From the NCBI RefSeq assembly GCF_044704955.1, contig NC_091989.1, positions 104,966,001 to 105,030,000 on the forward strand: 64,000 bases of DNA. Reading direction: 5' to 3'. The notes under the pieces were generated by a model, which searched no databases, was not told where the DNA came from, and saw nothing but the letters and a program-made list of their open reading frames with translations. The translations under genes were made by a program, and so were the position numbers. Below are positions 16,299-57,619 of the stretch, in pieces. Numbering within the stretch: the first letter of the stretch is position 1; the number at the start of each line of letters is the position of its first letter. This stretch comes from Pristiophorus japonicus. Taxonomy: Eukaryota.

Positions 16299-16353
16299 AT
16301 GTCGGTGAGAGCAACAGTTCAGTACATGGCTCTTCTGGGCATCCTTTGGCCAG
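16299..16353 (+). CDS. IgSF receptor exon 1: signal peptide MSVRATVQYMALLGILWP
   Basis: Kozak-like ACCATG, 55 nt, phase-1 donor CAG|GTACT, in frame with the V exon. Confidence 0.85.
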
Positions 16354-16536
16354 GTACTTTTAGTTATATGCTTCCGCTACTGAACAGAAAATCCTATTTT
16401 AAAAGATTCTACAACTGTTGTCTATTGTAAAGTTAGATAGTGTGCTTTTCCAATTTGATTGCTGGTGTTTCTTAATTATTCTTGTATTTTACGTCTCTTA
16501 ATTATTTTTTCGCCATTCTTGTTTATTTTCTGACAG

Positions 16537-16842
16537 CCGTTGAAGTAAATTCGAACAAAGTGCATCAATTCCCTAAACACATGGAGGTTGCCAGGGGCAC
16601 AAATGTTTCCATGTTCTGCACATTTTCTATATTTCAAGATGCCCCCGATGTTTATTGGTGGAGACGCGGCGACCAGACGCTTCTGGAGCCAGACAGCAGA
16701 AAGCAATTTAATGTAAAGAAGGGCAGAGGGTCATTTGATGTCCTGAATGCGAGTGTCGCAGACTCTGGAATGTATTACTGTACAGTAAAACATAATCAAA
16801 CCGATGTTGGAGATGGAAATGGCTCCCGGCTTACTGTGTTCG
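16537..16842 (+). CDS. IgSF receptor exon 2: V-set domain with germline-joined J-like segment (NKp30/SIRP/VJ-type)
   Basis: Polypyrimidine tract TTTTCTGACAG| and donor |GTAAGT, 306 nt, phase 1-1. Motifs VSMFC, VYWW, DSGMYYC and GNGSRLTV. Confidence 0.93.
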
Positions 16843-17994
16843 GTAAGTGCCATTGTGCCGTGGAGTGGGAGATTCTCAGCAGTGTGCGGTATGTGTAAAC
16901 CTTAATTGTGGGGGTAATTTGAACTTTTATCACTGGACGAAAACCTGATGATAGCAAGTTCGTTTTACACTTCTCCCGATATTCTTTTGCTTTGACCTCG
17001 GTGTACTCCAGCCCGCGGAATCGCTATCGCCCATTTTGCGCTACTGCCCAAGATCAATTTCACCCCTTCATTGTCCGCATGAAATTCCAAAGTGCTTTAC
17101 ATCCAATAAGTTATTTGGAAGTGCAGTTACAGTTGTTATGGAGGCAAGATACTGGAAGAGTATACTTGTTTAAATCTTGGCTTGAAATGAATAACTGGGA
17201 TTAGGTGACCAGATTTCTTATCACCAAAATAGCGGTGCCGTGGAGCGACATTGGGAACAATGTTAACACTTCTTAGGTCAAATCTTTTATATAACATTAA
17301 AGGTCATCTGCTCCACTCCAACAAGGTGCCTTCGTTACAAACTCAGCAGAACAATGTCTTGCTGCAACCCTGTTTATTTCATATACCGGGTAACCTTTTG
17401 AAATTGCCAATCTAATATTTTATATTCTGAATTGCCCAAAATGTGGAATTCCCTTTCCCAGAATGCTGTGGATGGAGAAACAATTGAAGCTTTCAATATG
17501 GAGATGGATGGATTTCATTAGGCACGGGTATCAAGGGATATAGAGTTAAGTGGGACAAAATAATTTCAGATACAGATCAACCATGATCTAATTGAATGGC
17601 CTCTTCCTCTTCCTATGTCCGCAGTTTAGGCTGTGCACTTGCTTCCATCGAGAAATTATTTGAAACTGCCAAACTAATTTCACAAATGAATCTTACAACC
17701 CATTGAGAGGGGCTGTGTTGTTCTTACCCTCATTACTGGATTGGAACCCAAGTCCTAGAGCTGATGGGGCAATGTAGGAACCCAATGACTCCTTGAAACT
17801 CGGTCTTATGTCAACTGAACTTTTTTATACACTCACAACTGGGCAGGATATCACCAAACATTTCTCTAAACGCCTGGGCTCCCGTATTTCTACTTGATGG
17901 TTTCCATTTACACTCCCCCAAAACCGAGACTGCAGTTGTGGCAGGAGATCAGAGAACACCGAGCCCGCCACCTCCACGGAAATTCTGCCGCATT

Positions 17995-18725
17995 CATTTC
18001 ATAGGCAGTCCCTCGGAATCGAGGAAGACATGCTTCCACTCCAAAAGTGAGTTATTTGATGGCTGAACAGTCCGATACGAGAGCCACAGACCCTGTCACA
18101 GGTGGAACAGACATTCGTCGAGGAAAGGGGTCGGTGGGGCTGGTTTGCCGTGCGCTCCTTCCACTGCCTGCGCTTGGTCTCTTCACGTTCTTTGCGTTGA
18201 AACTCGAAAAGCTCAACACCCTCCCGGATGCACTTTCTCCACCTCAGGCAGTCTTTGGCCAGGGTCTCCCAGGTGTCAGTGGTGATGTCGCACATTACCA
18301 GGGAGGCTTTGAGGGTGTCCTTATAACGTTTCCACTGCCCTCCTTTGACTCGTTTACCATGAAGGAGATCCGCATAAAGCATTTGCTTCGGGATGCTCGT
18401 ATCTGGCATGCAGACTATGTGGCCTGCCCAGTGAAGCTGATCGAGTGTGGTCAGTACTTCAATACTGGGGATGTTAGCCTGGTCGAGGACACTGATGTTG
18501 GTGCGCCTGTCCCCCAGGGGATTTGCAGGATCTTGCGGAGACATCGTTGGTGATATATCTCCAGCGACTTGAGGTGCCTTCTATACATCGTCCATGTCTC
18601 GAATCCATACAGGAGGGCGAGTATTACTACAGCCCTGTAGACCATGAGCTTGGTGGAAGATTTGAGGGCCTGGTCTTCAAACACTCTTTTCCTCAGACAG
18701 CTGAAGGCTGCACTGGCACACTGGA
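17995..18725 (-). mobile_element. RTE LINE 3' fragment with 8-bp TSD
   Basis: QLHWAGHIVCMPDTSIPKQMLY...KRYKDTLK and a C2H2-like end; TSD GCCGCATT at 17987-17994 and 18726-18733; empty site at about 29540. Confidence 0.9.
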
Positions 18726-19866
18726 GCCGCATTACATATTAGATATAAACAGATCCATGGGGAAGGAATGGAGGAATTCTGATCTTAGGTTGGGCAGTCA
18801 ACACGGTGCTGCTGGGAATAAAGGCCAAGATACTTTTCCAAGTTAATAATGCCCTGATTTAATAAATTGCTATTGCTACAAAGTCGGACAAGTACAAATG
18901 TAAGGAAAAGATGTTAAGGAGATTGTTTGTAATAAACTGACAAAACAATGCCAACCTAATGAGGGACTCCATTTCCAGCTAAAGAGTGTCTGTCGCTCCT
19001 TCGGACAGAGGGTCACCTTAGTAACAGACGATTGTAGGACTGATATAAGCAGAATCTTCTTCAGGCAAAACGTGTTCAACAGAGCGAATAGACTTCGGGC
19101 AGGGCAAAAACCCTGGAATTATATAAGACATGCACTCTGAGTTAGGATTTCCTATTGGGTTTACCCCACCTGTATGGATGTTGTGATCTACACAGATACA
19201 CAATTATCAATATGACGTGAAAAATATTCCGGCCCTCGGTTCGCGTACTGGAGAAAGTACATTAGGAAAAGCTGCATCATCTGAAATCTCCCCCACACAA
19301 ACTGAAATGCTGAGTCTATAGATTAGCAGCATCCAGTCTGCCGTCTGTGTAGACATCAGAGATATTTCAATACATTATGTACATCTCCTCAGTATTCACC
19401 GATAATTTTGGAATGTTTCGCAATATATGAAATATCCGAAAAACGACCAATTTTGAAACAAACACACAAAATATTTAACAACGCAAAGATTATTAATGAA
19501 TAAAAAGGGCCGTTCCCACTGTTCGTGTAGACTGGGTTGCGCTCTCTCGGATATATTCGGACAGTAACCTCACTCGGAGTCACAATCGCACGCCAGGATT
19601 TGATACTTCCATTGAGAACAGTGATGTGAACCTCCCTGCATGTTACCGATCCTGGGACTTTGGCCCAGTTTGCGTACCGTTTCCAATACCCGTCATTTTG
19701 CTGTGCTGTGCAATCTATAAAATAAATGCAAACAAGTTCAAAAAACGACAGCGCGAATAACTATTGTTAACTATACGGTAACCGCATAAGGAGGGTAGGT
19801 AAATGAGAATGTGTTCCTTTAAATTGAAAAATAATGATCGATGTAATATTTTTTTCTCTGTTAAAG

Positions 19867-20160
19867 TTCCCCCAACCCCCCTAAAAATGGCTGCTGTCGA
19901 AGGAATTTCAGCGACTTCCCTGAAACTCGAGTGTAAAACGGCTGGCATTTACCCGGAGCATTTAGAAATCTCCTGGCGAAGAGATGGTATCGCAAATCTG
20001 ACCGGAATAGTAACTGTGCGAAACAGGAGCGGGGGACTGTATGAGGTTTTCAGCTGGTTGGAAGAAGCACAACCTACCCAGAACGGAGTTGTTTATACAT
20101 GTCTGGTATCTCATGTGTCTCTTCGGGTGCCCGCCAATGTCAGCTACACTGTACAGCAAG
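19867..20160 (+). CDS. IgSF receptor exon 3: C1-set domain
   Basis: TTTTCTCTGTTAAAG| ... CAAG|GTAAGA, 294 nt, phase 1-1. Motifs LECKTAGIYPEHLEISW, GLYEVFSWL and YTCLVSHVSL. Confidence 0.92.
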
Positions 20161-20344
20161 GTAAGATTAGAAACATTTACAGCGGGGAACTGCTCCAACC
20201 TGTATTTACTTATTAACAAGCAGCTGTTCAAACCCAATGATATTGGGTAAATGAGAACTGTACTTACTGTTAATGTCACATCAATGGGAATGAAATAAAA
20301 ATATGCAAAACGTGGAGTAAAGGAGGGAGACTATCTCCCTGGAA

Positions 20345-20640
20345 GATATTTGATAGGGTGTTCAAAATCATGAGGAGTTAGAGAGTAGATAGAGAGAAAC
20401 TGTTCCCACTGGCAGAAGGGTTGAGAACCAGAGGACAAAGTTTTAAGGTGATTGGCAGAAGAACTAAAGGCGACATGAGCAAAAACAGTTTTACACAGTG
20501 AGTGGTTAGGATCTGGAATACACCGCCTGAAAGGGTGGTGGAGGTAGACTCAATTGTGGCTTTCAAAAGGGATCTGAATAAGTACCTGAGAAAAAAAGGC
20601 AGGACCATGGAGAAAGGGCGGGGGTGTGAGACTAGCTTGT
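20345..20640 (+). mobile_element. CR1 LINE 3' fragment
   Basis: VVRIWNTPPERVVE...FKRDLNKYL. Confidence 0.7.
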
Positions 20641-20830
20641 TCTTCTTTCGCATGATAGTAGCAAGGCAAATCAGATGTCGAAGTCAGATATCCAGGCCAA
20701 AGCTCCCGGTGTAACTCTGAGGTCAGTGCTCAATGATGTACCCAGGGTCTGATTAGGAGCTCCACAATCGCTGATGGCGATGCTTTAATCTTCCACCTAT
20801 GGAGAAGGTGCCAGCATCTACATGACCAGT

Positions 20831-21272
20831 TGTCGAGGAAATAGGAGACTTTCAGAACTGCACTTCGAGAGAATTGTATTTTAAAAAGCGAGATATCTCG
20901 GAGAGCCTGCTTGGACCGTACCAAGGCAGAAAACTCTGCCGTACAGGCAAATTATCCCTATCTTTATACAGAAATTGAATACAGAAATATAAAAGGAATC
21001 TTATTCATTAGTCCCGCGAGTACAAAGGTCGTCTCGGGAGGTACACACTCTATCTATCCTTGTATAGTTTCTCCCTGTTCACAGTCTGATAAGCAGAATA
21101 AAAGGAGACTCCCTTTTAATACCAGATGGTCATTTAATTGCATCTCTAAGTTTCAAAGCTAAAAAAAACGTGGCTATTTTTCTAGTCCTATTATTTATTT
21201 AAGCATAGCAAAAACAGAATTTAACCCTTCCCTTTTCCATAAGCCATAGATTCATAGATTCTTTCTTCCACA
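20831..21272 (-). repeat. ERV 3' LTR (442 bp)
   Basis: Direct repeat of 27482-27943; preceded on the minus strand by the purine tract GAGGAGGGAAT (21273-21283). Confidence 0.96.
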
Positions 21273-21318
21273 ATTCCCTCCTCGTTGATCTTTTTATTTT
21301 TTAGATCAACACAATTTC

Positions 21319-22533
21319 CTATATTCTCTTCTTGAGCAAAAGTGGGTTTATTACTTGACTAATTACATTTTTTAATTTTATCCACATTCCGCAAAGGATT
21401 ATTAATAATACAAGCATAACCACGCCTACGATTACTATGGGGTGTATAGCAAGCTTCAGTACTGCTGTAGCTTTTGGGGACCATCCGGTAAACACATCCC
21501 ACCAGTGGTGTACTGTCAAAGAGGTGACTTCATCTGCGATTCTCACTAGCTGCCCCTTCTTGTAACTCATTTCGACTCTAAATTGGTGGATGTCTCTGCC
21601 TTGCTTTGATTTCTTATCATTCCGTATCAAATTGTGCAGTCTGGTCAAATTAATTACAGGGGGTAAGGGTTCAATCTTGTGCATAGACAGATATTTTTCT
21701 TCATTTTGCCACTGCCCAAGGGTATAAGTTCTTTTTACTTCAGGGTCATACAGGGTGTAAACTCTTCTCACGCATTTATTAATGGGGGGTTTATACAAAA
21801 TTCCATCCAGATTACAACTGGTATATCTTTTTTTTTTGAGGGCTAATGGTTAAATTAAGAAGCTTATCTCTTTTGTTAATTTCCAGCAACCTTTCCCATG
21901 TGTTAGCATGGAAGGATAATATTTTCCTTTCTAACTCGGCTCTTAATAGCTGTCTGATCATTTCTTTAAACAGGCAATGGGTGTACTTGTTTACTCCCTG
22001 TTGTTCTTTCATTAGGTTCCCTATTTCCTTCTCTATCCCTTCATTCTGTTGCCAGGTCATTTCATTTATGACGTAACCTGATATCTGTAATTGCTGTAAT
22101 CCTTCATCCCAGGCATTTCTGATTTTTATTCCTGCTCCCACTCCACCTAACACAGTCTCTAATACATCCCGTTTCTTTCTTTGGTGTCTTTCTTTTTCAA
22201 ACCATCTTCTTTCTTTGGGGGATATTTAATTCGTATTGTTAGATTTAATACACCTGGGGATCTTACCACTGGGATGCAAGTGGTCAGTATCCTTTTTAGA
22301 TGTCCCGGGTCCCGGTCTTCTGGGTGGCCGGATTCTTTTACTGACCATTTTACCACAAATAGGTCTCCTCCATTGCCTTGCTGCCTCATACTATTACTTC
22401 TTTCCCATACCATATTTCCCTTCCATACTCTTCCTTCTTTTAGGACTTCTTCCTCCTGCCGGGAGTTCCCTGTCGCTAAAATGATCAGTATACCTAACGT
22501 CCATTTATAATTTTTCCAAGAGTCCCTTCCCAT
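21319..22533 (-). pseudogene. env: ERV envelope glycoprotein, frameshifted
   Basis: Signal peptide WTLGILIILATG, furin site RKKR|DVLETVLGGVGAGI (about 22181-22130), heptad-like region, and TM anchor IHPIVIVGVVMLVLLIILCGMWI, spread over three ORF pieces. Confidence 0.85.
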
Positions 22534-22748
22534 CTTCCCTTTCTTGTTTGTTTCTATACCACTCTTGAATTAAGTTGTTACAATAACAACACGTCTACAC
22601 GATAGTAACAGTGACCCAAATAATAAAGGCCCAAACTGGCACACAAATGAGCTCTGACATCCGTCCGTGAATTTTGGGCAATATTTTCAAGTCCAAATAT
22701 TCAATACAAGAGCAGGTACAGTTCTTTAGCGAGAAGATGGCTGTTTTC

Positions 22749-25700
22749 TTAGTCGGGCGACCGTAGTACGTCTTGGTTCAATGCCTTTTCCTTCGGCTGT
22801 AATTCGTCGTGGAAATAATATTTACAGCGGGTTGCATGCACCCAGTTCGGGTGCTTTTCCAACTTCAAAGCGGTTCGTGTTGTGAGAATTATCTGATACG
22901 GTCCTTTCCACCTAGGAGAAAAGGATTCTTTATTTAATGTTTTTACTAACACTTGATCTCCAGGTCTGAAAGGGTGCATATTTCTTTCCGATGGGGGCAA
23001 CTGTGTCTGCTTTATTTGTTCATGCAGACTCCTTGCTATTTCACACATGGCCTGAGCATACTTTAGTGATTTTTCATCATTCCAAATTAATGCTATTTTT
23101 TCATCTGCCAGTGGTGGTTTTACACCAGTAGGCATTGGTCTTCCCAATAAGGCTTCATGTGGTGTTAAATCAGTGTTTCGGTTTTTCTGGTTTCTCATTG
23201 TATACAATACTAATGGTAAGGCTTCTGGCCACTTCAGTCCAGTCTCCTGACATACCTTGGTAAGGGTAGATTTTATTATCCCATTTACTCTTTCTACCAT
23301 TCCCGAGGACTGTGGCTGATATGGTATATGTAACTTCCACTGGAACCCTAACGCTTCTGCAAGATTTTGCACTATTTTTCCGGTGAAGTGGGTTCCCCTG
23401 TCACTGTTGATTCCCATAGGTATCCCATATCTTGGTACTATTTCTTTAAATAGAATTTTTACTACTGTTCGGGCATCGTCTTTCCTAGTGGCGTACGCTT
23501 CTACCCACCTTGTGAACATATCTACTATGACTAATAGATACTTAAGACCTGATACTGGAGGCATGTGGACAAAGTCAATTTGCAAATTTTCAAAGGGCAT
23601 ACTTGGTTGGGGTAGATGATCATATCCAGCAGGTGTTTTACCTCTGTTATTTTGTTGACAAATTTGGCATGTTCTAGCAACTTTCTCAATTACTACTGTT
23701 ATTCCTGGTGCATACCACTGTGCATTAATAGCATGTATCATCCCTCCTTTGCCCATGTGAGCCTGACCGTGTGCTAGGCGAGACAGGGGCAAAAATAGAG
23801 ATCTAGGGCAAACAGTTCGCCCATCAGGGTGATACCAAATGTCGATTTTTAGAAAACAACCCTGGTTTTCCCAAGTTCTTCCTTCCTGCATGGTAACTTG
23901 TTGTTGGGCTGTTTAAAGTTGTTGGATGTCAAGTACCTGTGGAGGGGAAACTGAGACTGCTTGAAGGCAGTCTGCCTGTGCTGAAGCGGCCTGTTTGGCT
24001 GCTTCATCAGCCCTCCTATTTCCTACTGATACTTCATCCTCACCGGTTGTGTGAGCTGCACATTTGATAATGGCTACCTTACTTGGCAACTGAATGGCGT
24101 CTAGTAGATTAAGCACCAGTTGAGAGTGCTTAATATGCTTTCCACCAGAGGTGATAAAGCCTCTGTTTTTCCACAGTTGTCCAAAATCATGGACCACACC
24201 GAATGCATATCTAGAATCAGTATAGATATTAGCAGTATGATCTTTAGCTATTATACAAGCTCTAATGAGGGCAAACAATTCAGCAGCCTGAGCCGAGGTT
24301 CCGGGAGGCAGGGCGAATGCTTCAACAGTTTCGTGGGGATTTACAATAGCATAGCTTGCCAAAAACAAATCATCCGACGGCCTATGTGATGATCCATCCG
24401 TATAGAGAATAAGATCAGGATTGTCCATGGGCTCTGTGAGCAAATCTGATCTTGGTGAGGTGGCTATTTCCACCGTTAACAGACAATCATGCTGGTCTGG
24501 ATCCTCTACTTCTTTAGTAGGAAGAAAGGTGGCTGGGTTCACTACCGGTGCACGTCGAAAGGTATAGTTAGGGTGTGACAGCAGTAATACTTCATAACCT
24601 GTTCTTCCAGACGCTGTAAAGTGTTGTGTGGCAGCTGAATTCAAAAGTAATAACACAGCATGGGCTGTAATAACAGTACATGGATGATCCAAAACAATAG
24701 GTACCGACTTTTCCACCATGACCGCAGTAGCAGCTACAGCACGTAGACATGCTGGCATTCCCCTTACTACTAGAGGCAGCAAAAATGAATAATAAGCAAC
24801 TGGTCTATTTCCCCCACCATGTTCTTGGGTTAGTACTGCTGTTGCAAATCCTTCTTTCTCATTCACATACATCTGAAAAGGTTTACCATAATTCGGAAGT
24901 CCCAACGCCGGAGCATTAGTAATGGCTTTCTTTAACTATTTAAATGTCTCCTCTCTCTCTGGGGTCCACTCCACCTTGGGTGGGGCATCATTTAGGGCAG
25001 CTGATCTTAGGACCGCATCCCATTCTCGATAATTGTCTGAATTCTTTCTGGTCCTAGCTGCCTCTGCCCTTTAGATATGTGAAAACCCAGGTACTGGACT
25101 TGAGTCTGACAAAATTGTAACTTTTGTAACGACACTCGGTGCCCTCTTTCACATAGGTGCTGTAACAGTGTCAGGGAATCTTGCATGCACCTGTATCCGT
25201 GGCTAGAAGCCACAAGCAAATCATCCGCACACTGCAGCAGTACAGACTGGTCTGATAATGAACAGTCTTCGAGGTCTCTTTTTATTGCTGCTGCATATAC
25301 TGCGGGGCTTTCGGTGTATCCTTGGGGCAACCTGGTCCATGTGTACTGCTGCTTCTTGTGGGTGAAAGCAAACAGATACTGACTTTCTTGATTTAACGGG
25401 ATGGAGAAAAAAGCTGAACACAGGTCTATTGCAGTAAAGACAGTTGCTGTTGGTGGTATAGCAGATAGTATAATGTTGGTGTCCGGTACCACAGGGGTGA
25501 TAGGGACTACTATCTTATTAATAGCTCTCAGATCTTGCACAAATCTCCATTCCTACAATCATCGGACCCATATCTTTAGGTTTCGCTGGCGGTTTTACAG
25601 CCAATGTCAGATGGGGTGTCGAGTTCGCTTCTCTAAACCGCTGTTGCTGTAAGGGTGTCAAATCGATGGCTACCCCCAATCCTTCTGGTCCAAAATAAAT

Positions 25701-26372
25701 GCGGGGCGTAGCTTCTACTATTTCTTCTCTATTTAAAAAGGATTGTACCAAACACTGGTAAGTTTCAGCTTTTTGTCGAGTGTACCAGGCTGTACAGTGA
25801 AGCTGAACTGCCTCAAAGCTTGTCAAAATTATATACATCAATTCTTCAGTATTAGAGTCAATTTTAGCTTTTAAGTTTTGTATAACTTCATGTATCAAGG
25901 GGGAATAGAAGTTGCCATTCAATTGCCAACAATAGAGGGCAGCCTTTTCTTTGTTATCCTCCCTTTTCTCTTTTTTAATCCGATTAAAGAACTGATGGAT
26001 TTTATTTGGAGGGAGCTCCATGAACATTCCTTCCTTTGTGCAATAAATTGTGGCTCCTAGTTTGCACAAAGTCTGTCTTCCCAATAAAGGGAGAGGTGTT
26101 GTTTTAGAGACTATCAAAGTCTCATCATTAACTGATTGTCCTTCAATTATCAATTTGGTAGGTTCAGATAAAAATTCTTTCATGGGGATACCGGCCACAC
26201 CCATACTTAAGACGGTGGTGTTGCTTACAGGTAATCCCACAGAGGATGGTACAGAAGACATAGTAGCACCGGTATCCACCAGGAATTTCATATAAGTGTC
26301 TCCTACTTTTACTACTGCCAGAGGGTTTTCTTCTATGTCTGCCAATAAGCGGAGGGCTGCCGCCTGTACCAC
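22749..26372 (-). pseudogene. pol: ERV pro-pol: protease, 2H-like insert, RT (deleted and mutated), RNase H, integrase
   Basis: LVDTGA/LLGR protease; QDLRAINK, LPQGY and CADD (YxDD mutated); YTDGSS, SAQAAEL, YTDSRY, GNRRAD RNase H; HHCC, LQIDF, SDRGTHF, VERVN and WKGPY in an open 380-aa integrase ORF. Confidence 0.95.
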
Positions 26373-26390
26373 TAAGCCTCCGGGGCATCC

Positions 26391-27143
26391 CTATGCTGAT
26401 TATTCTGCGCCTGTCCTCGTCCCTTTTGCTGATTTACTGACCTGCTGTTTTAGCCTTATTTTCATTATAGGTAAATAGTCCCTCTCTATCCATGTTAGCC
26501 AGTACTGTAACTGTCTCTTTCCAACTTTTTCCTTGCCAGTCCAAAACCTTTATTTTGTATGTTCTTGCTTGTTGTGGCAACATACAATTTAACAAGGTTT
26601 GCACTGCCAAAGATTCATCTTTTACCCCTTGCCAAGAGGACCCATATGCTGCCTGCAGTAATAATTTCACATCTCCGGGGAGGGGGTTATAAATGGTACA
26701 GGTTTGCTCAAGCCAGTTGTGAAAGGCTACTGGCTTCTTAACAGGATTAGGGGCGGCTGATATATATTTTTTTTAAAACAATTCTCCATATAATCTTTAT
26801 CCCAAGTGGGGTCCCCTGTCCCATTTTTGGTGGTCTGTCTCCATTCCTCAATTAAGGACGATTTAAAACTTCCTCCATATGGCCAATCCACATCAGACCA
26901 ACCGTACAAATCGCTACTAAACGTTACCGCATATCTGTCGTCTCCTGTTTCTTTAATTACAGTGTCCGCCGGCGAGCCGGGCAGCACAATGGGATCTCCT
27001 ACCTTCTCTCGTTGCTTTACTACCTTACTGATTCTTTTCTCAGTCTTAGGATGTACTTTCTTTCTTTCAGTTGAGAGGTCGTCCTTCTTTCTTTTTCTAG
27101 GAGCTGGGCGCGAGCGCCCTGCTCGACTAGAGCCGTTTCCCAT
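26391..27143 (-). pseudogene. gag: ERV gag, shortened and frameshifted
   Basis: MGNGSS myristoylation-type start, matrix-like WPYGGSF, capsid remnants, and a TAG-GGA-TGC readthrough-like context at 26393-26385. No CCHC finger seen. Confidence 0.75.
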
Positions 27144-27457
27144 TCTGCCGGATGCAACGCCTCGCGATCTTTTCTGAAATGAGAGTTAGGATAATCCTAC
27201 AAAATATACAATAATTTACAAAGCGCTCACCGGTATTCTCTTTTCTGCTCAGCTCGGGGTCTCCTTTTGCCTTTTTGTTATTTTAGCTTCTTTGCGGTAG
27301 CTACCTTATGCCTCACCCCCTAGGGGATCTCGGCGGCCCGTCCCCCTTTTGCTAGGATGGCCTAGGCACCTTCCTCCTTTCAGCTAGGAAGGTCCTTAAA
27401 ATTCCTTTTTTCTCTTTAAAAGTTAAAGTTAGTTCTTTTGGATCTCGTTTTTTAGAG

Positions 27458-27476
27458 ATCCTGCCTGACTACGCCA
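27458..27476 (-). promoter_or_regulatory. Primer-binding site, tRNA-Ser-like
   Basis: TGGCGTAGTCAGGCAGGAT, 5 nt after the 5' LTR; complementary to the tRNA-Ser 3' end (TCCTGCCGACTACGCCA) with one extra base. Confidence 0.85.
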
Positions 27477-27481
27477 GAATC

Positions 27482-27943
27482 TGTCGAGGAAATATTAGCT
27501 TAAATTAACTCAGGCGGAGACTTTCAGAACTGCACTTCGAGAGAATTGTATTTTAAAAAGCGAGATATCTCGGAGAGCCTGCTTGGACCGTACCAAGGCA
27601 GAAAACTCTGCCGTACAGGCAAATTGTCCCTATCTTTATACAGAAATTGAATACAGAAATATAAAAGGAATCTTATTCATTAGTCCCGCGAGTACAAAGG
27701 TCGTCTCGGGAGGTACACACTCTATCTATCCTTGCATAGCTTCTCCCTGTTCACAGTCTGATAAGCAGAATAAAAGGAGACTTCCTTTTAATACCAGATG
27801 GTCACTTAATTGCATCTCTAAGTTTCAAGGCTAAAAAAACGTGGCTATTTTTCTAGTCCTATTATTTCTTTAAGCATAGCAAAAACAGAATTTAACCCTT
27901 CCCTTTTCCATAAGCCATAGATTCATAGATTCTTTCTTCCACA
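27482..27943 (-). repeat. ERV 5' LTR (462 bp)
   Basis: Direct repeat of 20831-21272, adjacent to the PBS. Confidence 0.96.
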
Positions 27944-28529
27944 CCAGTTCTGAGGCAGTTGATGTTTCTCCACTGGTTGCAAGGAAGGTTTGATCCTTCA
28001 GGTTGTACTGTGAGGTCTTTATAAGAAATCCATTCTGTATGTCAAAGTTCTTCGAAGCACTTTGCCATCGGTCATCAAGGTTAAGGGGAGATTGCTGAAG
28101 GGCTTCGGCAATGGTCCAAAATGGCCTTCTATATTTGTCATAGGTTGGTGGTATTTTCTTCAAATCAGTCTGGATCATCAGCATGTCTTTGCTGGTGTAC
28201 CGGTTGTATTCTCTGGAGGCTGCATATTCGCATTGTAGGTGTGGTGATGTGATATTTGCCAGCACCGGCAGCCAAGGAGTTGGTGTTGATAAATGCGTAG
28301 TGGGACTAGCTGAAGTGCCCTTGCAGAGAGCCGGCATGGACTCAATGGGCTGAATGGCCTCTTTCTGTGCTGTAACCATTCTATATTTCTATGGAGAAAT
28401 CCACAACGGGAGGTTGATGTGCGAACTGCTCAAAACCTGAAAGATTATTTCTCCTCAAATGAAATTAAATTATGCAACAAATGGATAAGTTCTACCAGAT
28501 TCGCTTGTACATCCTGTGTATTTAAATAG

Positions 28530-28960
28530 AATATATGGAACTGTCATTGGATAGATGGAAACTATACTCTCTGGAGTTTATAAGATGAGAGGTGATCTCA
28601 TTGAAACAAATAACATTCTTTGAGAACTTGTTGAGGTCGATGCTGAGAGGTTGTTTCCCCTGGCTGGAGAGCCTAGAACTAGGGGGCACAGTTTCAGATA
28701 ACAGGTCGACCATTTAAGACCGAGTTGAGGATGATTTTTTTCATTCAGAGGGCTATGAACATTTGGAACTCTCTGCCCTAAAGGGATGCGGATGCTGCAT
28801 CATTGATAATAATTAAAGCTGAGATCAATCGATTCATGAACTCTAAGGTAATAAAGGGATCGGGGATTGGGCGGGAAAGTGGAGTTGAGGTCGAAGATTA
28901 ACCACGATCTTATTGAAGGCTCGAGGGTTCGTAGTACTGGTCTACTACTGCCCTAATTAT
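28530..28960 (+). mobile_element. Old CR1 3' fragment
   Basis: Degenerate LYSLEF-RMRGDLIET sequence and CR1 3' UTR. Confidence 0.7.
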
Positions 28961-29144
28961 TATATACTTATTATGTTCATTTGTTCTATGTGCACCGTGT
29001 CTTCAGCTGCCTAGACCCTAAACTTTGGAATTCCCACCCTAATCCTCTCCTCTTCTGCACCTCTCTCTCTTTCTTTAAGACGTTCCTTGGACCCTACCTC
29101 AACTGGTCCTAATTGTGACTCGGTGTCAAATGTTTGACAACGCA

Positions 29145-32100
29145 AGGGATATGGAGTTAAGTGGGTCACATGAATTTAGGCTGTGCACTTGCGTGCACTG
29201 AGAACTTATTTGAGACTGCCAAACTCATTCCACAAATGAATCTTACAACCCATTGAGAGGGGCTATGTTGTTCTTACCCTCAATACTGGATTGGAACCGA
29301 AGTCCCAGAGCTGATGAGGCAGTGCAGGAATGAAATGCCCCTGTTTGAAACTCGGTCTTATGCCAATTGAACTTTTTTATACACTCACAATTGGGCAGGA
29401 TATCACCGAACATTTCTCTAAATGCCTGGGCTCCCGTATTTGTACTTGATGGTTTCCATTACACTCCCCCCAACCGGAGACTGTAGTTATGGCAGGAGAT
29501 CAGAGAACACCGAGCATGCCACCTCCACAGAAATTCTGCCGCATTACATATTAGATATAAATAGATCCGTGGGGAAGGAATGGAGGAATTCAGATCTTAG
29601 GTTGGGCAGTCAACATGGTGCTGCTGGGAAAAAAAGGACAAAATAATTTTCCAAGTTAATAATGCCCTGATTTAATAAATTGCTATTGCTACAAAGTCGG
29701 ACAAGTACAAAAGTAAGGAAAATATGTTAAGGAAATTGTTTGTAATAAACTGACAAAACAATGCAAACCTATTGAGGGACTCTATTTCCAGCTAAACAGT
29801 GTCTGTAGCCCCAGCGAGTAACAGATGATTGTAGGACTGATATAAGCAGAATTTTCTTCAGGCAAAACATGATCAACAGAGCGAATAGACTTCGGGCAGG
29901 GCAAAAACCCTGGAATTATATAAGACATGCACTCTGAGTTAGGATTTCCTATTGTGTTTCCCCCATCTGTATGGATGTTGTGATCTACACGGAGATACGT
30001 AGTGGTCTGACGAGATGAATTTAAGGAGCTAGAAGCTAAATTAAAAAGTAGGACCTCAAAAGTAGTAATCTCGGGATTGCTACCAGTGCCATGTGCTAGT
30101 CAGAGTAGGAATCGCAGGATAGCTCAGATGAATGTGTGGCTTCAGCAGTGGTGCAGCAGGGAGGGATTCAAATTCCTGGGGCATTGGAACCGGTTCTGGG
30201 GGAGATGGGACCAGTACAAACTGGATGGTCTGCACCTAGGCAGGACCAGAACTAATGTCTTAGGGGGAGTGTTTGCTAGTGCTTTTGGGGAGGAGTTAAA
30301 CTAATATGGCAGGGGGATGGGAACCAATGCAGGGAGACAGAGGGAAACAAAATGGAGACAGAAGCAAAAGACAGAAAGGAGATGAGTAAAATTGGAGGGC
30401 AGAGAAACCCAAGGCGAAAAACAAAAAGGGCCACTTTACATCAAAATTCTAAAGGGTCAAAGTGTATTATAAAGACAAGCCTGAAGGCTCTGTGCCTCAA
30501 TGCGAGGAGTATTCGAAATAAGGTGGATGAATTAACTGTGCAGATAGCAGTAAACGGATACGATGTGGTTGGCATCACGGAGACATGGCTCCAGGGTGAC
30601 CAAGGTTGGGAACTCAACATCCAAGGGTATTGAACATTTAGGAAGGATAGACAGAAAGGAAAAGGAGGCGGGATGGCATTGCTGGTTAAAGAGGAAATTA
30701 ATGCAATTGTAAGGAAAGACATTAGCTTGGATGATGTGGAATCAGTATGGGTGGAGCTACGGAATACCAAAGGGCAGAAAACGCTAGTGGGAGTTGTGTA
30801 CAGACTTCCAAACAGTAGTAGTGATGTTGGGGAGGGCATCAAACAGGAAATTAGGGATGCATGCAATAAAGGTGCAGCAGTTATCATGGGTGACTTTAAT
30901 ATGCATATAGATTGGGCTAACCAAACTGGAAATGATACGGTGGAGGAGCATTTCCTGGAGTGCATAAGGGATGGTTTTCTAGACCAATAGGGTAACTTTG
31001 AAGGTATGAGGCGTGAATTGGCTAGGATAGATTGGCGAATGATATTTAAGGGGTAGATAGTGGATGGGCAATGGCAGGCATTTAGAGACCGCATGGATGA
31101 ACTACAACAATTGTACATCCCTGTCTGGCGTAAAAATAAAAAAGGGAAGGAGGCTCAACCGTGGCTATCAAGGGAAATCAGGGATAGTATTAAAGCTAAG
31201 GAAGTGGCATACAAATTGGCCAGAAATAGTAGTGAACCTGGGGACTGGGAGAAAATTAGAACTCAGCAGAGGAGAACAAAGGGTTTGATTAGGGCAGGGA
31301 AAATAGAGTACGAGAGGAAGCTTGCAGGGAACATTAAAATGGACTGCAAAAGCTTCTATAGATATGTAAAGAGAAAAAGGTTAGTAAAGACAAACGTAGG
31401 TCCCCAGCAGTCAGAATCAGGGGGAAGTCATAACTGTGAACAAAGAAATGGCAGACCAATTGAACAAGTACTTTGGTTCGGTATTCACTAAGGAGGACAC
31501 AAACAACCTTCCGGATATGAAAGGGGTCAGAGGGTCTAGTAAGAAGGAGGAACTGAGGGAAATCCTTATTAGTTGGGAAATTGTGTTGGGGAAATTGATG
31601 GGATTGAAGGCCGATAAATCCCCAGGGCCTGATGGTCTGCATCCCAGAGTACTTAAGGAGGTGGTCTTGGAAATAGCGGATGCATTGACAGTCATTTTCC
31701 AACATTCCATAGACTCTGGATCAGTTCCTATGGAGTGCAGGGTAGCCAATGTAACCCCACTTTTTAAAAAAGGAGGGAGAGAGAATACAGCGAATTTTAG
31801 ACCGGTCAGCCTGACATCGGTAGTAGGTAAAATGATGGAATCAATTATTAAGAATGTCATAGCAGCGCATTTGGAAAGAGGTAACATGATAGGTCCAAGT
31901 CAGTATAGATTTGTGAAAGGGAAATCATGCTTGACAAATCTTCTGGAATTTTTTGAGGATGTTTCCAGTAGAATGGACAAGGGAGAACCAGTTGATGTGG
32001 TGTATTTGGACTTTCAGAAGGCTTTCGACAAGGTTGCACACAAGAGATTAATGTGCAAAGTTAAAGCACATGGGATTGGGGGTAGTGTGCTGACGTGGAT

Positions 32101-33860
32101 TGAGAACTGATTGGCAGACAGGAAGCAAAGAGTAGGAGTAAATGTGTACTTTTCAGAATGGCAGGCAGTGACTAGTGGGGTACCGCAAGGTTCTGTGCTG
32201 GGGCCCCAGCTGTTTACATTGTACATTAATGATTTAGACGAGGGGATTAAATGTAGTATCTCCAAATTTGCAGATGACACTAATTCGGGTGGCAGTGTGA
32301 GCTGCGAGGAGGATGATATGAGGCTGCAGAGTGACTTGGATAGGTTAGGTGAGCGGGCAAATGCATGGCAGATGAAGTATAATGTGAATAAATGTGAGGT
32401 TATCCACTTTGGTTGTAAAAACAGAGAGACAGACTATTATCTGAATGGTGACAGTTTAGGAAAAGAGGAGGTGCAACGAGACCTGGGTGTCATGGTACAT
32501 CAGGCATTGAAGGTTGGCATGCAGATACAGCAGGCGGTTAAGAAGGCAAATGTCATGTTGGCCTTCATAGCGAGGGGATTTGAGTACAGGGGTGGGAGGT
32601 GTTACTACAGTTGTACAGGGCCTTGGTGAGGCCACACCTGGAGTATTGTGTACAGTTTTGGTCTCCTAACTTGAGGAAGGACATTCTTGCTATTGACGGA
32701 GTGCAGCGAAGGTTCACCAGACTAATTCCCTGAATGGCGGGACTGACATATCAAGAAAGACTGGATCAACAGGGCTTGTATTCACTGGAGTTCAGAAGAA
32801 TGAGAGGGGATTTCATAGAAAATTCTGACGGGTTTAGACAGGTTAGATGCAGGAAGAATGTTCCTAATGTTGGAGAAGTCCAGAACCAGGGGTCACAGTC
32901 TAAGGATAAGGGGTAAGCCATTTAGGACCGAGATGAGGAGAAACTTCTTCACCCAGAGAGTGGTGAACCTGTGGAATTCTCTACCACAGAAAGTTGTTGA
33001 GGCCAAGTCACTAAATATATTCAAAAAGGAGTTAGATGTAGTCCTTACTACTAGGGGGATCAAGGGGTATGGTGAGAAATCAGAAATGGGGTACTGAAGT
33101 TGTATGTTCAGCCATGAACTCATTGAATGGTGGTGCAGGCTCGAAGGGCCGAATGGCCTACTCCTGCACCTATTTTCTATGTTTCTATGTTTCTATCAAT
33201 ACAACCCTATCGTGACGTGATAACTATTCCAGCCCTCGGTTCGCGCTCTGGAGAAAGTACATTAGGGAAAGCTGCATGATCTGAAATCTCCCCCACACAA
33301 ACTGAAATGCTGAGTTGGCAACTGGAATGCGCGGGTTCTAATCTATAGATTAGCAGCATCCAGTCTGCCGTCTGTGTAGATAACGGAGATATTTCAATAT
33401 ATTATGTAGATCTCCTCAATATGCACCGATAATTTTGGAATGTTTCGCAATATATGAAATATCCGAAAAACGACCAATTTTGAAAGAAACACACAAAATG
33501 TTTAACACCGCCAAGATTATTAATGAATAAAAAGAGACGGTTCCACTGTTCGTGCAGACAGGGTTGCGCTCTCTCCGATATATTCGGACAGAAACCTCAC
33601 TTGGGGTCACTGCTGTCAACCACAATCCGCGCCAGGATCTGATACCTCCATTGGGAACAGTGACGCGGGGCTCCCTGTATGTTACCGATCCTGGGAGACT
33701 CGGCCCTCTTTGCCTACCGTTCCCAATACATCCCGTCATACTGCTGTGCGCCGTAAAACAATTTATAAAGTAGATGCAACCACAAAGTTTAAAAAACGAC
33801 AGCGCGGATAACTAATGTGACAGCAGGATTGTAACAAACATACCCAGGGTGGGTAAATGA
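29145..33860 (+). repeat. Intragenic duplicate of intron segment about 17525-19808 (interrupted here by a CR1)
   Basis: 29145-29990 aligns to 17525-19195 (minus the RTE), and 33200-33860 aligns to 19200-19808. Confidence 0.9.
30009..33196 (+). mobile_element. CR1 LINE, 5'-truncated within ORF1, ORF2 disrupted
   Basis: ORF1 esterase end DGLHL; endonuclease LNARS, GITETW, MGDFN; RT; (TTTCTATG)n tail; stops and an internal deletion of about 200 bp near 30990. Confidence 0.95.
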
Positions 33861-35220
33861 GACTATAGCCCGATTTACACTATCTCACCAAGTCAAAATC
33901 TACCCCAAAGTGAGCTAATTATTGGCTGATTTCTGGAGGGGAGATTCCCTCTAGCTAACCTTTTAGAAAACTACAATTTCACTGGAAATTGCAAACACAG
34001 GTGTGGAGCAATGTTGGGCTGGTCGCGGCGTGTCGCAACGTTGTTAACATTGGCATGAAAGGTAAGTCTTCTTTTGGAACAGCGTTTTTCAATAGAAACA
34101 AACCCACAAGGGACCTCTGTGAACACATTTACTATGTCCCTGCACATAGCGGCCGCAGGGAACCCTCCTTCACGTTCTTCTCCACACTACACAGAGGAGT
34201 TTACCGTTCGATCGCCGAAAGTTCGGCTGAAGAGCCGCGGAACTTCCGTTTTTTCCATGGTTTGAGCGGCTTCTCCGCCGAAGTTACGGCGAACCAGCGG
34301 GAGAATCTCGGTGGAAATATTTAAGATGTCCTCGTGAAATGAGGAATCGTCCTTTGTTTTGATTACTGGAATGTTAGCAGGTCGTTGATAATCATGTGTA
34401 CAGGAGGTATATGGCATGTGCGAAAGTTTCAAGATGTTTGGAAAGGAATGGAATGTATTGGAGCAGAAATAAGCATCTCACCTGTTCTGACGCGAAGTCT
34501 TAAAGAGCTGAGGAGAGCACAGGGTTTTCAGGACGTGGAATATCCTTTCAGAAACAGTGGTGGAAGCAGAGTCTATCATTTTTTTTAAGTCATGTGGATA
34601 AATACGTCAACGGGACTAACTGGCCTCATGTGTCAGAGCCGACACACGCACACTGAGCCGAATGGACTCCAGCACTGTAACGTATGATTTTATAACCGGA
34701 TAACTATGATTCGGTAAATAGAGCACACAGATTTAAGATCATTGCCAAAAGAACCAGAGAGGAAATGAGAAAAAATGTTTTACAAGGCTAGTTGTTATGA
34801 TCTATAATGCACTGCCTGGAAGGGTGCTGCCAGCAGATTCAATAATAACTTTCAAACGGGAATTGGATGTACATTTGAAAAGGAATGTTTAGCAGAGCTA
34901 TGGGGAAAGAGCAGAGATGTGGGACTAACGGGATAGCTCTTTCAGAGAGCCGGCACAGGCAAGCTGGGCCCAATGGCCTCCTTCTGTGCTCCATTATTCT
35001 ATGATTCTACCAAATATGGCACTTTTCTCTCTCCGTTTCGGTGCCCGTGTCATTTCTAGCTTAATATTTAGTAATATTCGAAAACACAGAAATTAACAAT
35101 GTTCGGATGAAACACTTTGTGAAACGGACCCGTCCTAAACTCGTGTTTTAAATTATAAACTACAGAAATAACATAATAATTAGTATTTCAAACACAAACT
35201 GATGTTCTTTTTCCCCCAAG

Positions 35221-35511
35221 CTCGACCACTCCTCTGAGCATCGACTTGGTTGGGTCTGAGTTCCGCCCACCCATTTCTCCGACTCTCGTGTATAAAACAG
35301 CGAAGTTTTACGCTGAAGATCTCAATGTGACTTGGTATAAAAACAACGAAAAGCTTGTAACCGGGGACAATACTAAACAGCGCAGCGCGGTGGGCCTGTA
35401 TGAGGTTTGCAGCACTTTCAAAGAAACGGCGCATGTCCGCAGTCTATACAGCTGTACAAGTGTCTCATGTCTCTCTTCAGACTCCAGCCAGTGTTAATTA
35501 CAGCGTCGAAG
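35221..35511 (+). pseudogene. Second C1-set exon, inactivated
   Basis: Good acceptor TTTTTCCCCCAAG| and donor G|GTACC. Restored sequence PTLVYKTAKFYAEDLNVTWYKN...GLYEVCSTF...YSCQVSHVSLQTP. It has a -1 frameshift near the start (in-frame TGA), Cys to Tyr in the B strand, and a +1 frameshift near 35456. Confidence 0.88.
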
Positions 35512-36025
35512 GTACCGTCAATACATTTTTCAGAAACGTTCGCTCCTTTACAGTTTTTCTGAATACAGGGACACGTTGTGAACACTTTTGTTACAGTTTG
35601 ATGTTACTGCAATGGTTTATTACATTGAGGGTCTGTTTGTCAGATTGTGAATTGTTTCATTTGTAGGCATTGTATTTGAATATTTTTTTGAATCATATCG
35701 GTATGGCCTTTACATGATTCGTTCTGATCCTAAAATCATAGAATCATAGAAATTTACAGCCCATCGTGTCCGCGCCGGCCGACAAAGAACTATCCAGCCT
35801 AATCCCACTACCCAGCTTTTGGTCCGTAGCCCTGTAGGTTAAAGCACTACAAAACAAAGTGCTCCCATCATGAAAAGAAAAGTAATTTAAAGAAATACCT
35901 TCAGGACGACGAGTAATTCGTTTTCAGATACGTTTTAAATGATCCCGTGTACCTCTGGGTTTTCTTGCTGGTTTAATTGACATTATTGCCCGTTGGCTTT
36001 TATCTCCGCAACTCTGTGTTTGCAG

Positions 36026-36129
36026 GTGCTGTGTGTTTGGCGCCTCGACATTTCGGGAGTGTATTGGTCATAATGGTGCTGGTGGCCATCGTTGGGAATT
36101 ATTGTAAGCTGAAGTACTGTCAAAGGTGA
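36026..36129 (+). CDS. Probable transmembrane exon: GAVCLAPRHFGSVLVIMVLVAIVGNYCKLKYCQR*
   Basis: Acceptor TGTGTTTGCAG|; the phase-1 frame gives a hydrophobic run followed by basic and Cys residues. Donor AAG|GTGAG at 36125 overlaps an in-frame TGA. Confidence 0.62.
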
Positions 36130-36695
36130 GACACAGGTTTATTACCAGAGCGCATCGTCGCTTTACAGATCAAATTTTTGTTGTAAATCAACAGATAACG
36201 TCGCGTTAAATGATCGGAGACATTTGGACCACAATTTATACATTGGAAGTAAGAGGATGTCTATCCTGGGGCAGTGGTTGGTGCAGAGTTGTGTCAACAC
36301 TATCGCCAGACCAACAGTATCTCACAAGAGACAACGATCTTCGCTGGTCCTTGTGGCTCAGCAACGTTACGAAGATATTTGGAGGATTCCCATGTTCTGG
36401 GGAAATAGCAGAAGTGTTTTAAGAGACGCCGCTTAGGATTTCACTAGAAATAGCAACCAGAGGACCCACCACCCCGGGTATTAAAGGGGAATACAAATAC
36501 AACCGCATCGTTATCGGACCAATTTTTTGTTTCACAACAATTATTTTAAAGGAGGATGAATTGCTCTGGTGATTGTGTGGGGACGTGTTAAATGCATTTC
36601 AGAGTGTTTGTGAATTGGCTGCACCTAGCCAGAGCGGGTTCCTCCCACTGCATTCACTTACCCGGACTGTTCAGCTGTGAAGCTGGTTTTCTTGG

Positions 36696-37552
36696 TTCAA
36701 TACACATTGTGTCCATCAGCCGGTCCAGGCAGCGGGCGGTCGAGGGGGTCGTTCAACCTGACTGCCTGCCTCTCTTCTGCTCTTACATCCGAGCCAGGGT
36801 GTCCCTGGAGATGGAGCACGCGGTGTCCACCGGTACGCTCGCAGCCTTCCGCGAGAGGTGGGCACCGGAGGGACTGGAGTGCATCATCACGCCCGGCAAC
36901 CAAATTTTAATTTGATTTTACGTTTTAAAGTTTAATTTGTTTTAATTGCCGGTGCTTTTAGTGTCCCCCTCTCCTTTTATAAGGGGCACTGGAAAAAGGA
37001 AAAATTTGATTTTAGTGCCCAAAAAAAACAAAAAAGAAAAAAGAAAAAAGAAAAAAAGGACCTTCTAAATGTCTGGTGTGTCATCCAGGTCGGGTGGCAC
37101 GGATAAATGTTTTATGTTTTGCAGGTAGACTCTAAAAGAGTTTCAATACACATTGTGTCCATCAGCCGGTCCAGGCAGCGGGCGGTCGAGGGGGTCGTTC
37201 AACCTGACTGCCTGCCTCTCTTCCGCTCTTACATCCGGTCCAGGGTGTCCTTGGAGATGGAGCATGCGGTGTCCACCAGTACGCTCGCGGCCTTCCGTGA
37301 GAGGTGGGCACCGGAGGGACTGGAGTGCATCATCACGCCCGGCAACCAAATTTTAATTTGATTTTACGTTTTAAAGTTTAATTTGTTTTAATTGCCGGTG
37401 CTTTTAGTGTCCCCCTCCCCTTTTATAGGGGGCACTGGAAAAAGGAAAAAGAGGGCCTTGTAAATATATGGTGTGTCATCCAGGGCGGGTGCCACCGATG
37501 AATGTTTTTGTTTTACAGGTAAACTCCAAAAAGAGTTTCAATACACATTGTG
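36696..37552 (+). mobile_element. Two tandem Tx1/L1-clade 3' fragments
   Basis: Each encodes SISRSRQRAVEGVVQPDCLPLF...GNQILI*; TTCAATACACATTGTG occurs at 36696, 37142 and 37537. Confidence 0.88.
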
Positions 37553-38687
37553 CAACTCAGTATTCAGAAGCGGATTTTACGTTAAGGCGTGTGTGCAGAG
37601 AATGTGTCCACGAAGATCAATAGAATCAATCTATCAAATGTTTGTTTATTGGTAAATTGAAAGTAGATTACATTTGTTGCAATAATTGGATTGGAGTCTG
37701 ATTTAACCATGTTTAGCGCCAAAATGAATTGAACTGACGACACTGCTATTATGACAGACTGCGGATAATCTGATAAACTGGGTCAAGGTTGAAACAAATA
37801 TTTCCCAATCTGTCTCTGGTTAAAAACAACCAGTAACCAATGGCTCTTTCACCAAAGGCAGTGTGCACAGACCAGGAAGGTCGCGGGTTCTATCCCGGGA
37901 CTAAGCTAAAGTCGCTGATTTCTGCAGGTGGGCAGTGGGTTCCCATGATATTGTTCTTGGTGAGGAAGGGTGGAATCAGGCAGGTCAAACTCCTGATCCC
38001 TCTCCAGTGACTACTTCGGAAAGCCTTCATGTCTGGAGTTCAGGATAGTGTTCGGCTGTGAGGACCTCCCCTGAATCTAAAATTCCGCTGACACTTGGGG
38101 ATATAAATTAGTTTGGGACAGTGGCGTAAAACGGGCGATAGCGCATGGGCCACCCGTTTTACATTCTGTCCCATTTGCTTTTTCATTGAAATCGATGGAA
38201 ACGAAAATCAGACCGAATTCAAAAATAATTCGCTCTCGCCAGTTTGGCACTATGGCCCACGGTAAATATATACCACGGTAAATGTATGTCTAAACTCGCC
38301 CTTGAAAGTTGGCCACTTAGGCGAGATATCAGAGCGTGTATTGCGCACATTGAACGGAACCTTACCTGGAGTCAGCACATTTGGGAGAGTACGGGCTGAG
38401 ATTGGAAAGGAAAGTGTGGGGAGGGGGGAGTAATTGATCAAAGTCATCCATTCAATCCACTGCCAGTATTAAATGCTGTGCTTCTTTAGCAGGTCATGCA
38501 AGAAACAACTCACTGGAACATGACAAACTGTGCTGAAGATTTCACTGCCTCCAAGGAAATTGTAAGCCTGGTATTCTGGACAGGGTATCATGAGGGTAGA
38601 TTTTGACTGTGAGATAGCGTGACCTGGGTCATAACGACTTGCCAGCACCTTTTACATCTCTCGATAGTTTTATTTCCATTGAAGTGA

Positions 38688-53380: not shown

Positions 53381-53557
53381 AGAGAAAAGGGACAATGGGT
53401 ATGTAGTAAAATAGGCAGGGTACGACCACTGGTGTCCCTCGGGATCTGCACTGGGCCTACAGCTTTTTGCTATATTTTGAAATTAAATACATGAAGGAAT
53501 AGAGAGCCGTACATCTAATTTTGCTGCCTGGACTATGTTCGTTGGCGCATTACATCG

Positions 53558-57596: not shown

Positions 57597-57619
57597 AATG
57601 TGCAGATGGGAGTAGAAAT

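Follow-up and report, generated by a model that had tools for sequence, protein, structure and literature searches.

We analyze a 64,000-nucleotide stretch of the 5.9-Gb Pristiophorus japonicus genome (C13:104,966,001-105,030,000; hereafter, "the window"), in which a preliminary description had placed a non-rearranging antigen-receptor-like gene with a leader, a germline-joined variable-joining (VJ) domain, a C1-set domain and a transmembrane (TM) exon. We find that this sequence is probably the leader-VJ-C1 part of one copy from a family of ~40 cartilaginous-fish genes, likely paired receptors, and that the copy no longer has TM and tail exons of its own; dead pieces of another member come after it. 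The 252-residue gene as first drawn is a chimera of pieces from paralogues.

The leader, V and C1 exons of the window copy have the splice-site ends and the common phase reported earlier (Table 1). Joined to the TM-like exon at 36026-36125, they give an open frame of 251 codons plus two bases, or 252 residues if the last exon continues to a stop at 36127-36129; any product that includes the second C1 exon (35221-35511) meets stops. The leader peptide shares 75-79% identity with the N-terminal end of homologues from Heterodontus, and Pfam agrees with both domain assignments, V-set and C1-set. The J-like motif GNGSRLTV lies inside the V exon, 3' of YYC, as had been noted. The earlier remark that no recombination signal sequence is visible also stands: a scan of the whole window (heptamer with at most one mismatch, nonamer with at most two, 12/23 spacers) returned two loose matches, at 3067 and 36685, neither adjoining the V exon.

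A genome search with the V exon yields 39 matches at E <= 0.001, of which 38 lie on C13 and six of those 38 contain stops. The C13 matches fall into two clusters (84.9-86.1 and 104.0-105.05 Mb), with a few copies scattered outside them. The C1 exon finds at least 46 matches, a floor since 150 of 246 candidates were scored; 38 of them fall within C13:84.9-111.4 Mb, the span that also holds 38 of the 39 V matches. The family of ~40 genes is clustered on one chromosome, C13. Outside this genome, the closest database proteins are from Heterodontus, with 68-74% V identity and a V-C1-TM layout whose tails carry LTYAAL and AVYAEV. Members were also found in Scyliorhinus, Heptranchias, Chiloscyllium, Hemiscyllium, Mustelus, Carcharodon, Mobula, Hypanus and Callorhinchus, and the family thus extends from chimaera (Callorhinchus) through rays to sharks. 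Where the contig is given, database members of one species mostly appear on a single contig, which fits clustering. Their database names are SIRP-alpha-like, SIRP-beta-like, tapasin-related, NCR3LG1-like, immunoglobulin (Ig) light chain (IgL)-like, PD-L1-like and T-cell receptor (TCR)-beta-like. A search of 50% representatives gave 68 matches at E <= 1e-30, some of them giant multi-Ig proteins. The nearest bony-vertebrate matches are weak (coelacanth P0115, 30%, and P0154, 33%; lungfish P0158, 27%); a search with coelacanth P0166 yielded its own cluster only, and an atlas search returned generic Ig clusters only.

Members differ in what follows the C1 domain. Most join a neutral TM to a long tail with motifs such as LTYAAL, TEYAQL and AVYAEV, which resemble immunoreceptor tyrosine-based inhibitory or switch motifs (ITIM/ITSM). 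Others have an Arg early in the TM and an acidic residue plus a His where the TM ends; their tails measure 10-50 residues. The ITIM forms are seen in Callorhinchus, rays and sharks, and the short-tailed Arg forms in five shark genera, with three loci in P. japonicus (TM exons at C13:104.478, 85.76 and 86.09 Mb). When 10-kb stretches downstream of C1 or V exons are examined, a TM exon is present in 23 out of 34, with tyrosine-motif exons in eight of those 23. The V domains of the Arg-type gene at 104.47 Mb and of the ITIM genes at 104.87 and 105.04 Mb are all 88-94% identical to that of the window. A shared ectodomain with opposing tails, a tandem cluster and pseudogenes, as found here, are the features by which paired immunoreceptors are recognized. 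The preliminary description, which proposed a cartilaginous-fish innate or natural killer (NK)-type receptor with non-rearranging VJ and C1 domains, is supported, but it missed this cluster of ITIM and Arg-TM forms. By analogy with known receptor families, the V domain would bind a cell-surface or pathogen ligand, and long-tailed members would recruit SHP-1/2 through their ITIM/ITSM tyrosines. Short-tailed Arg members would pair with an adaptor of the FcR-gamma/CD3-zeta type, as NKp30 does. The cluster evolves by birth and death.

Two junctions separate the intact exons of the window copy from the TM exon that had been assigned to it. Homology to two ITIM paralogues ends at 29134-29143, and the TM exon of intact close paralogues sits 0.4-0.5 kb past this break. 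A second copy of the V-C1 intron then spans 29175-33862, with a long interspersed nuclear element (LINE) within it. Beyond the second junction, most of 33861-38688, including the dead C1 exon and the flanks of the TM exon, matches at 84-94% a broken paralogue (C13:104.926-104.938 Mb) with stops and a frameshift in its own V. The dead C1 exon, correctly read as dead in the preliminary description, keeps intact splice sites, and its 3' frameshift is common to both other copies. The proposal of one gene with C1 domain(s) and that TM is not supported, as the pieces come from paralogues and one C1 per gene is the family norm (the close homologues P0001-P0009 each have a single C1). A tandem duplication has copied a unit of one chimera and one ITIM gene; both junctions are also found in the copy at C13:104.817 Mb and therefore predate this duplication.

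Table 1. Coordinates of the features discussed, in window positions
Feature	Position	Strand	Remarks
Leader exon (split signal peptide)	16299..16353	+	Phase 1, AG/GT ends; paralogous leaders at C13:104.817, 104.873 and 105.042 Mb
V exon (single-exon VJ)	16537..16842	+	AG/GT ends, phase 1; Pfam V-set E 6.8e-11
Intact C1-set exon	19867..20160	+	AG/GT ends, phase 1; Pfam C1-set E 2e-7
Possible secreted ending	20161..20299	+	C1 exon reads on for 18 codons, with the last base of the stop at 20216; AATAAA at 20294
Broken endogenous retrovirus-like element in intron	20831..27943	- (antisense)	Protease, reverse transcriptase, RNase H and integrase in separate frames
Junction 1	29135..29175		C1-TM intron breaks, then second copy of V-C1 intron; common to the sister chimera at C13:104.82 Mb
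Junction 2	33855..33870 (~33861)		Sequence changes to the V-C1 intron of another family lineage (related to Heterodontus P0061/P0165)
Dead C1 exon of other lineage, frameshifted	35221..35511	+	66% identical to the C1 of P0061, <=49% to other top matches
Decayed TM exon of other lineage	36026..36125	+	11 of 22 residues match the TM end of ITIM-type member P0088

With exon boundaries shifted by one base, the exons, splice ends and open frame of the preliminary description stand, but the exon at 36026-36125 could not be confirmed as the TM exon of this gene. It is 100 nucleotides long and ends in phase 2, while family TM exons measure 90-120 nucleotides and are multiples of three in all 15 that could be delimited (of 23 found). 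Its hydrophobicity is 2.06 versus 2.35-3.03 in 14 out of 14 database members, and among the 16 acceptor-led hydrophobic stretches of 20161-64000 it ranks 10th. The two chimeric copies are 95% identical over this exon and 97.6% over the next 500 bases of intron; the exon is not better conserved than intron. It lies 16 kb from the C1 exon, beyond the retroelement and the dead C1 exon with its intact splice sites, and no tail exon was found downstream of it. The donor-like locus at C13:104.926-104.938 Mb has no counterpart of this exon, so its assignment to another lineage rests on its flanks and on P0088. We consider it unlikely that the window gene is a working 252-residue membrane receptor as first drawn, even with intact splice sites, an open frame and the same chimera occurring twice with leader, V, C1 and TM exon open in both.

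As judged from its exons, the window copy would be unable to signal. Its most likely fate, which we put forward tentatively, is that it is silent and owes its open exons to recency or gene conversion. Somewhat less likely is a secreted decoy of ~236 residues made of V and C1, a product that is possible because the read-through of the C1 exon stops after 18 codons, with AATAAA at 20294 as a possible, putative poly(A) site; this signal is present in two of five close paralogues (the window copy and C13:104.876 Mb) and absent from the sister chimera. A tailless membrane form made with the foreign TM exon would be a doubtful third. The dN/dS ratios (nonsynonymous to synonymous substitution rates) of the window V versus close paralogues, 0.32-1.91, rest on two to five synonymous changes, too few to weigh.

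Several observations weigh against our account of the copy and of its family. Both chimeric copies have open leader, V and C1 exons but a decayed C1 remnant, which may mean that the truncated gene is in use; gene conversion instead of use may explain the open exons, given that the window V shares 94% identity with the ITIM gene and 88% with its positional sister. The activating-type paralogue at C13:104.472 Mb has no leader within 3.3 kb, and the tail of the ITIM paralogue at 105.04 Mb contains a stop; paired function in this genome therefore rests on other copies. Arg also occurs in the TM exons of two ITIM-bearing copies (L063 and L075), and TM charge alone fails to sort the classes. Finally, in the C1 tree the family groups weakly (85/72), apart from Ig, major histocompatibility complex (MHC) and lungfish SIRP-named C1 domains.

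The V tree, built separately from the C1 tree as the preliminary description had proposed, is firmer. Family V domains form one clade at 97/98 with the window V included (99/98 in the tree without it), outside germline-joined, kappa, lambda and sigma-like IgL, Ig heavy chain (IgH), TCR and NCR3-like V domains; deeper branches are not resolved. Outgroup V domains were taken from the P. japonicus genome and labeled by motif and position, the NCR3-like ones also by sequence match. For the tree with the window V, 11 rows were removed as long-branch or redundant, and its bootstrap was not yet fully stable; both V trees leave out 12 of 30 V loci that were broken or near-duplicate. On the family V profile, NCR3-like V is the best-scoring outgroup (45-52 bits). 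The layout matches that of the proposed pre-RAG antigen receptor, as the preliminary description had noted, but neither family V nor family C1 shows special kinship to Ig or TCR in the trees.

Some single loci outside the family turned up in the same searches. L158 (C10:47.43 Mb), possibly NCR3H, is a single-exon VJ gene with 41 bits on the family V profile, outside the family and NCR3-like clades. L159 (C13:21.92-21.93 Mb, minus strand) is a single-exon VJ with the CD28X signature YxC-x6-PPP-x4-GxG and a C1-like exon ~6 kb downstream; the described form of CD28X has a single V domain, and the exon pair could represent a V-C1 form or include a neighboring gene. L100 (C4:117.28-117.29 Mb, minus strand) consists of a V exon without an in-frame G strand and then at least two C1 exons, which fall together with multi-C1 proteins of rays and sevengill and have matches to UrIg2 and IgM; the locus could be a UrIg2-like copy that lies apart from the TCR-like V cluster of C23.

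The V domain is unusually short, and structure prediction, also proposed earlier, agrees. Between the two V cysteines lie 54-60 residues in the family versus 64-73 in Ig, TCR, NCR3-like, CD8-like and other outgroups, and the model of the window V (predicted local distance difference test, pLDDT, 90) has no C' or C'' strand, as in VNAR, the V domain of IgNAR. Fold matches to this model are ties: NCAM2 Ig1 (Z 14.5), skate VNAR (Z 14.3, root-mean-square deviation 2.2 over 96 aligned residues, 23% identity), basigin, CD79b and TCR V. VNAR rearranges, and the I-set domains of NCAM2 and basigin score equally, which makes shared shortness the likely explanation of the resemblance. Sequence searches of the PDB with the V exon and the V profile were topped by multi-domain I-set proteins and did not discriminate. 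For a model of a full-length homologue, the top Foldseek rows are Fab light chains, and a wide fold search returns B7-H6, butyrophilin and PD-L2, all of these at 17-25% identity. As far as these models go, fold similarity leaves the family unassigned.

It is from such matches, and from some of the database names, that a germline-joined IgL or TCR cluster, or a gene related to B7-H6 or tapasin, might be argued. The B7-H6 row leads with Z 16.9 (root-mean-square deviation 3.5 over 188 residues), but unrelated two-Ig proteins come within 1-1.5 of it and the light-chain and B7-H6 scores are ties among generic two-Ig proteins. With the Ig and TCR V domains taken from this genome all outside the family clade, members bearing TM exons and ITIM tails, and two markers of the B7-H6 region, RAG1 and a Kir6 gene, on C14, we regard this reading as very improbable. 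A true cartilaginous-fish SIRP family, in an early two-domain form at a different location, is also unlikely. Joined VJ and C1-set domains, clustering, and ITIM-bearing (ITIM plus ITSM pairs) together with short-tailed, charged-TM forms in one cluster are all SIRP-like, and RefSeq labels many members SIRP-alpha-like or SIRP-beta-like. SIRPs, however, have two C1 domains (V-C1-C1) where the family has one, a longer V, and a central Lys in the TM where the family has its early Arg. NSFL1C, the SIRP neighbor gene, maps to C12, and the 100 kb on either side of it hold no V or C1 match in a search that recovered five of five control C1 domains. No SIRP chain is among the best 60 of 111 PDB matches to the V exon, whereas an NCR3-like V of this genome matches SIRP at E 2e-8; the SIRP-gamma fold match (Z 13.8, root-mean-square deviation 5.4) is tied with many others, and lungfish SIRP-named C1 falls outside the family clade. 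SIRP clusters are reported in mammals, birds and lizards, with their origin called unknown (PMC9652883), and the SIRP family has been placed at Tetrapoda (PMC13262535).

An orthologue of PRARP or NITR, already described in bony vertebrates, is about as improbable. NITRs of ray-finned fish are clustered joined-VJ receptors with inhibitory and activating forms, as the family is, but their second domain is I-type where that of the family is C1-set. PRARP is reportedly (Fu et al., 2019) a VJ-C1-TM protein with ITIM/ITSM, the layout of the family; it occurs as one or two genes, we know of no activating partners, and we compare it by description only. In the C1 tree, the sister of the family is a V-C1-TM protein of coelacanth, P0154, with weak support (80/71) and a long branch, whereas the V tree places both coelacanth proteins with NCR3-like V, outside the family. 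PRARP and NITR are both listed, with CD79, SIRP, CD8 and NKp30, as joined-VJ genes (PMC11599192); NITRs are described as clustered with both kinds of form (PMC9652883), and PMC10751288 names PRARP as an MHC-located VJ gene, a linkage that the family does not have. The paired-type design resembles SIRP or NITR, and both were set aside on domain number or synteny. Other known receptors share parts of the design of the cartilaginous-fish family. NKp30/NCR3 also has a single-exon VJ, a GxG lacking Phe and an early TM Arg like that of the activating forms, but it has no C1 and is MHC-linked; the NCR3-like genes of this genome, on C19, form a separate clade, and the family adds ITIM forms. The elasmobranch UrIg and UrIg2 have a non-rearranging VJ exon, a split leader and C1 domains, but 3 to 11 of the latter, in antibody-like dimers encoded by single genes in the MHC or beside TCR-alpha/delta (PMC12227049). 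The family has ~40 genes with one C1 and signaling tails, occurs in chimaera too, and is linked neither to the MHC (C19) nor to the TCR-like cluster (C23).

The MHC linkage suggested for testing in the preliminary description is not found: the class I cluster is on C19, with NCR3-like V genes on the same contig, and the family, on C13, is therefore not MHC-linked. RAG1 is on C14 and GAPDH on unplaced contigs; searches for MHC class II beta and opioid precursor markers were empty, without a positive control. Directly distal to the cluster are exons of BBS2 (Pfam and PDB), of an AMFR-type RING/synoviolin-like gene and of a gene with a weak NUDIX_2 match (E 0.018). We take the last two, by recognition, to be AMFR and NUDT21. 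In human, the three genes are markers of 16q12-13. Around the 85-Mb cluster, ~200 kb of flanking sequence contain no recognizable gene. Two inverted Kir6 copies with equal scores lie at C13:66.78 and 66.89 Mb, the one checked being KCNJ8-like, and a third Kir6 type is on C19; because KCNJ8-like genes at 66.8 Mb are also on C13, this is probably a fused chromosome. On C3 (316.6-319.3 Mb), long open frames of 419-777 residues contain nine matches to MHC class I alpha1-alpha2, all intronless and nearly identical to one another.

The window also contains several repeats. The retrovirus-like element has long terminal repeats at ~20831-21272 and 27482-27943, which differ by seven mismatches and one gap over 428 aligned bases, and a 5-bp target-site duplication; the paralogue at C13:104.8216 Mb is an empty site. 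To judge by these sequences, the insertion is recent and entered the window copy alone, after the tandem duplication. Within its several broken frames are a murine leukemia virus-type integrase C-terminal domain and a hydrophobic env-like region. LINE copies are at 30004-33196, 38684-41305, 42390-45292 and 53554-57600, and one of them, at 38816-41212, retains a 798-residue open frame with an internal deletion.

A deeper connection would make the family the surviving sister of the gene that was split by the RAG transposon, with one ancestral VJ-C1 signaling receptor giving rise to TCR/Ig, SIRP and the shark family via genome duplications, outside the MHC paralogons. We think this rather improbable. 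TCR-alpha/delta is at human 14q11 and SIRP on chromosome 20. A table in PMC1867822 shows MMP14/15/16/24 as paralogous at 14q11, 16q13, 8q21 and 20q11, which would tie the 16q12-13 neighbors of the family to those regions, and PMC12227049 also places TCR-alpha/delta on chromosome 14; according to a table in PMC6585022, NSFL1C belongs to the 1/2/8/20 paralogon, and a SIRP connection via 16q is thereby weakened. What ties the family to antigen-receptor origins is its architecture together with this paralogy argument, which the trees neither support nor exclude.

The suggestion that the family is possibly uncharacterized agrees with the literature that we searched, in which no description of it was found; subscription papers of the most relevant groups and supplements lay outside that scope. 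The available text of PMC12227049 covers UrIg2 and does not describe the family, whose genes may be listed in the supplements of PMC10751288 and PMC12227049. It is possible, though not what we expect, that those subscription papers have already named it.

The window copy by itself matters little, but it illustrates how the cluster generates chimeras. The family as a whole has been hidden under at least six borrowed database names, and its position away from the MHC is relevant to the model that derives joined VJ-C1 genes from a proto-MHC. The NK and myeloid inhibitory receptors of sharks are poorly known beyond NKp30, and the family, whose members have two domains arranged like an antigen-receptor chain, much as an antibody light chain fixed in the germline would, and include ITIM and Arg-TM forms, is a concrete candidate; if the sister relationship to the RAG-split gene were true, it would be the main unnamed candidate for the self-recognition receptors of shark NK or myeloid cells.

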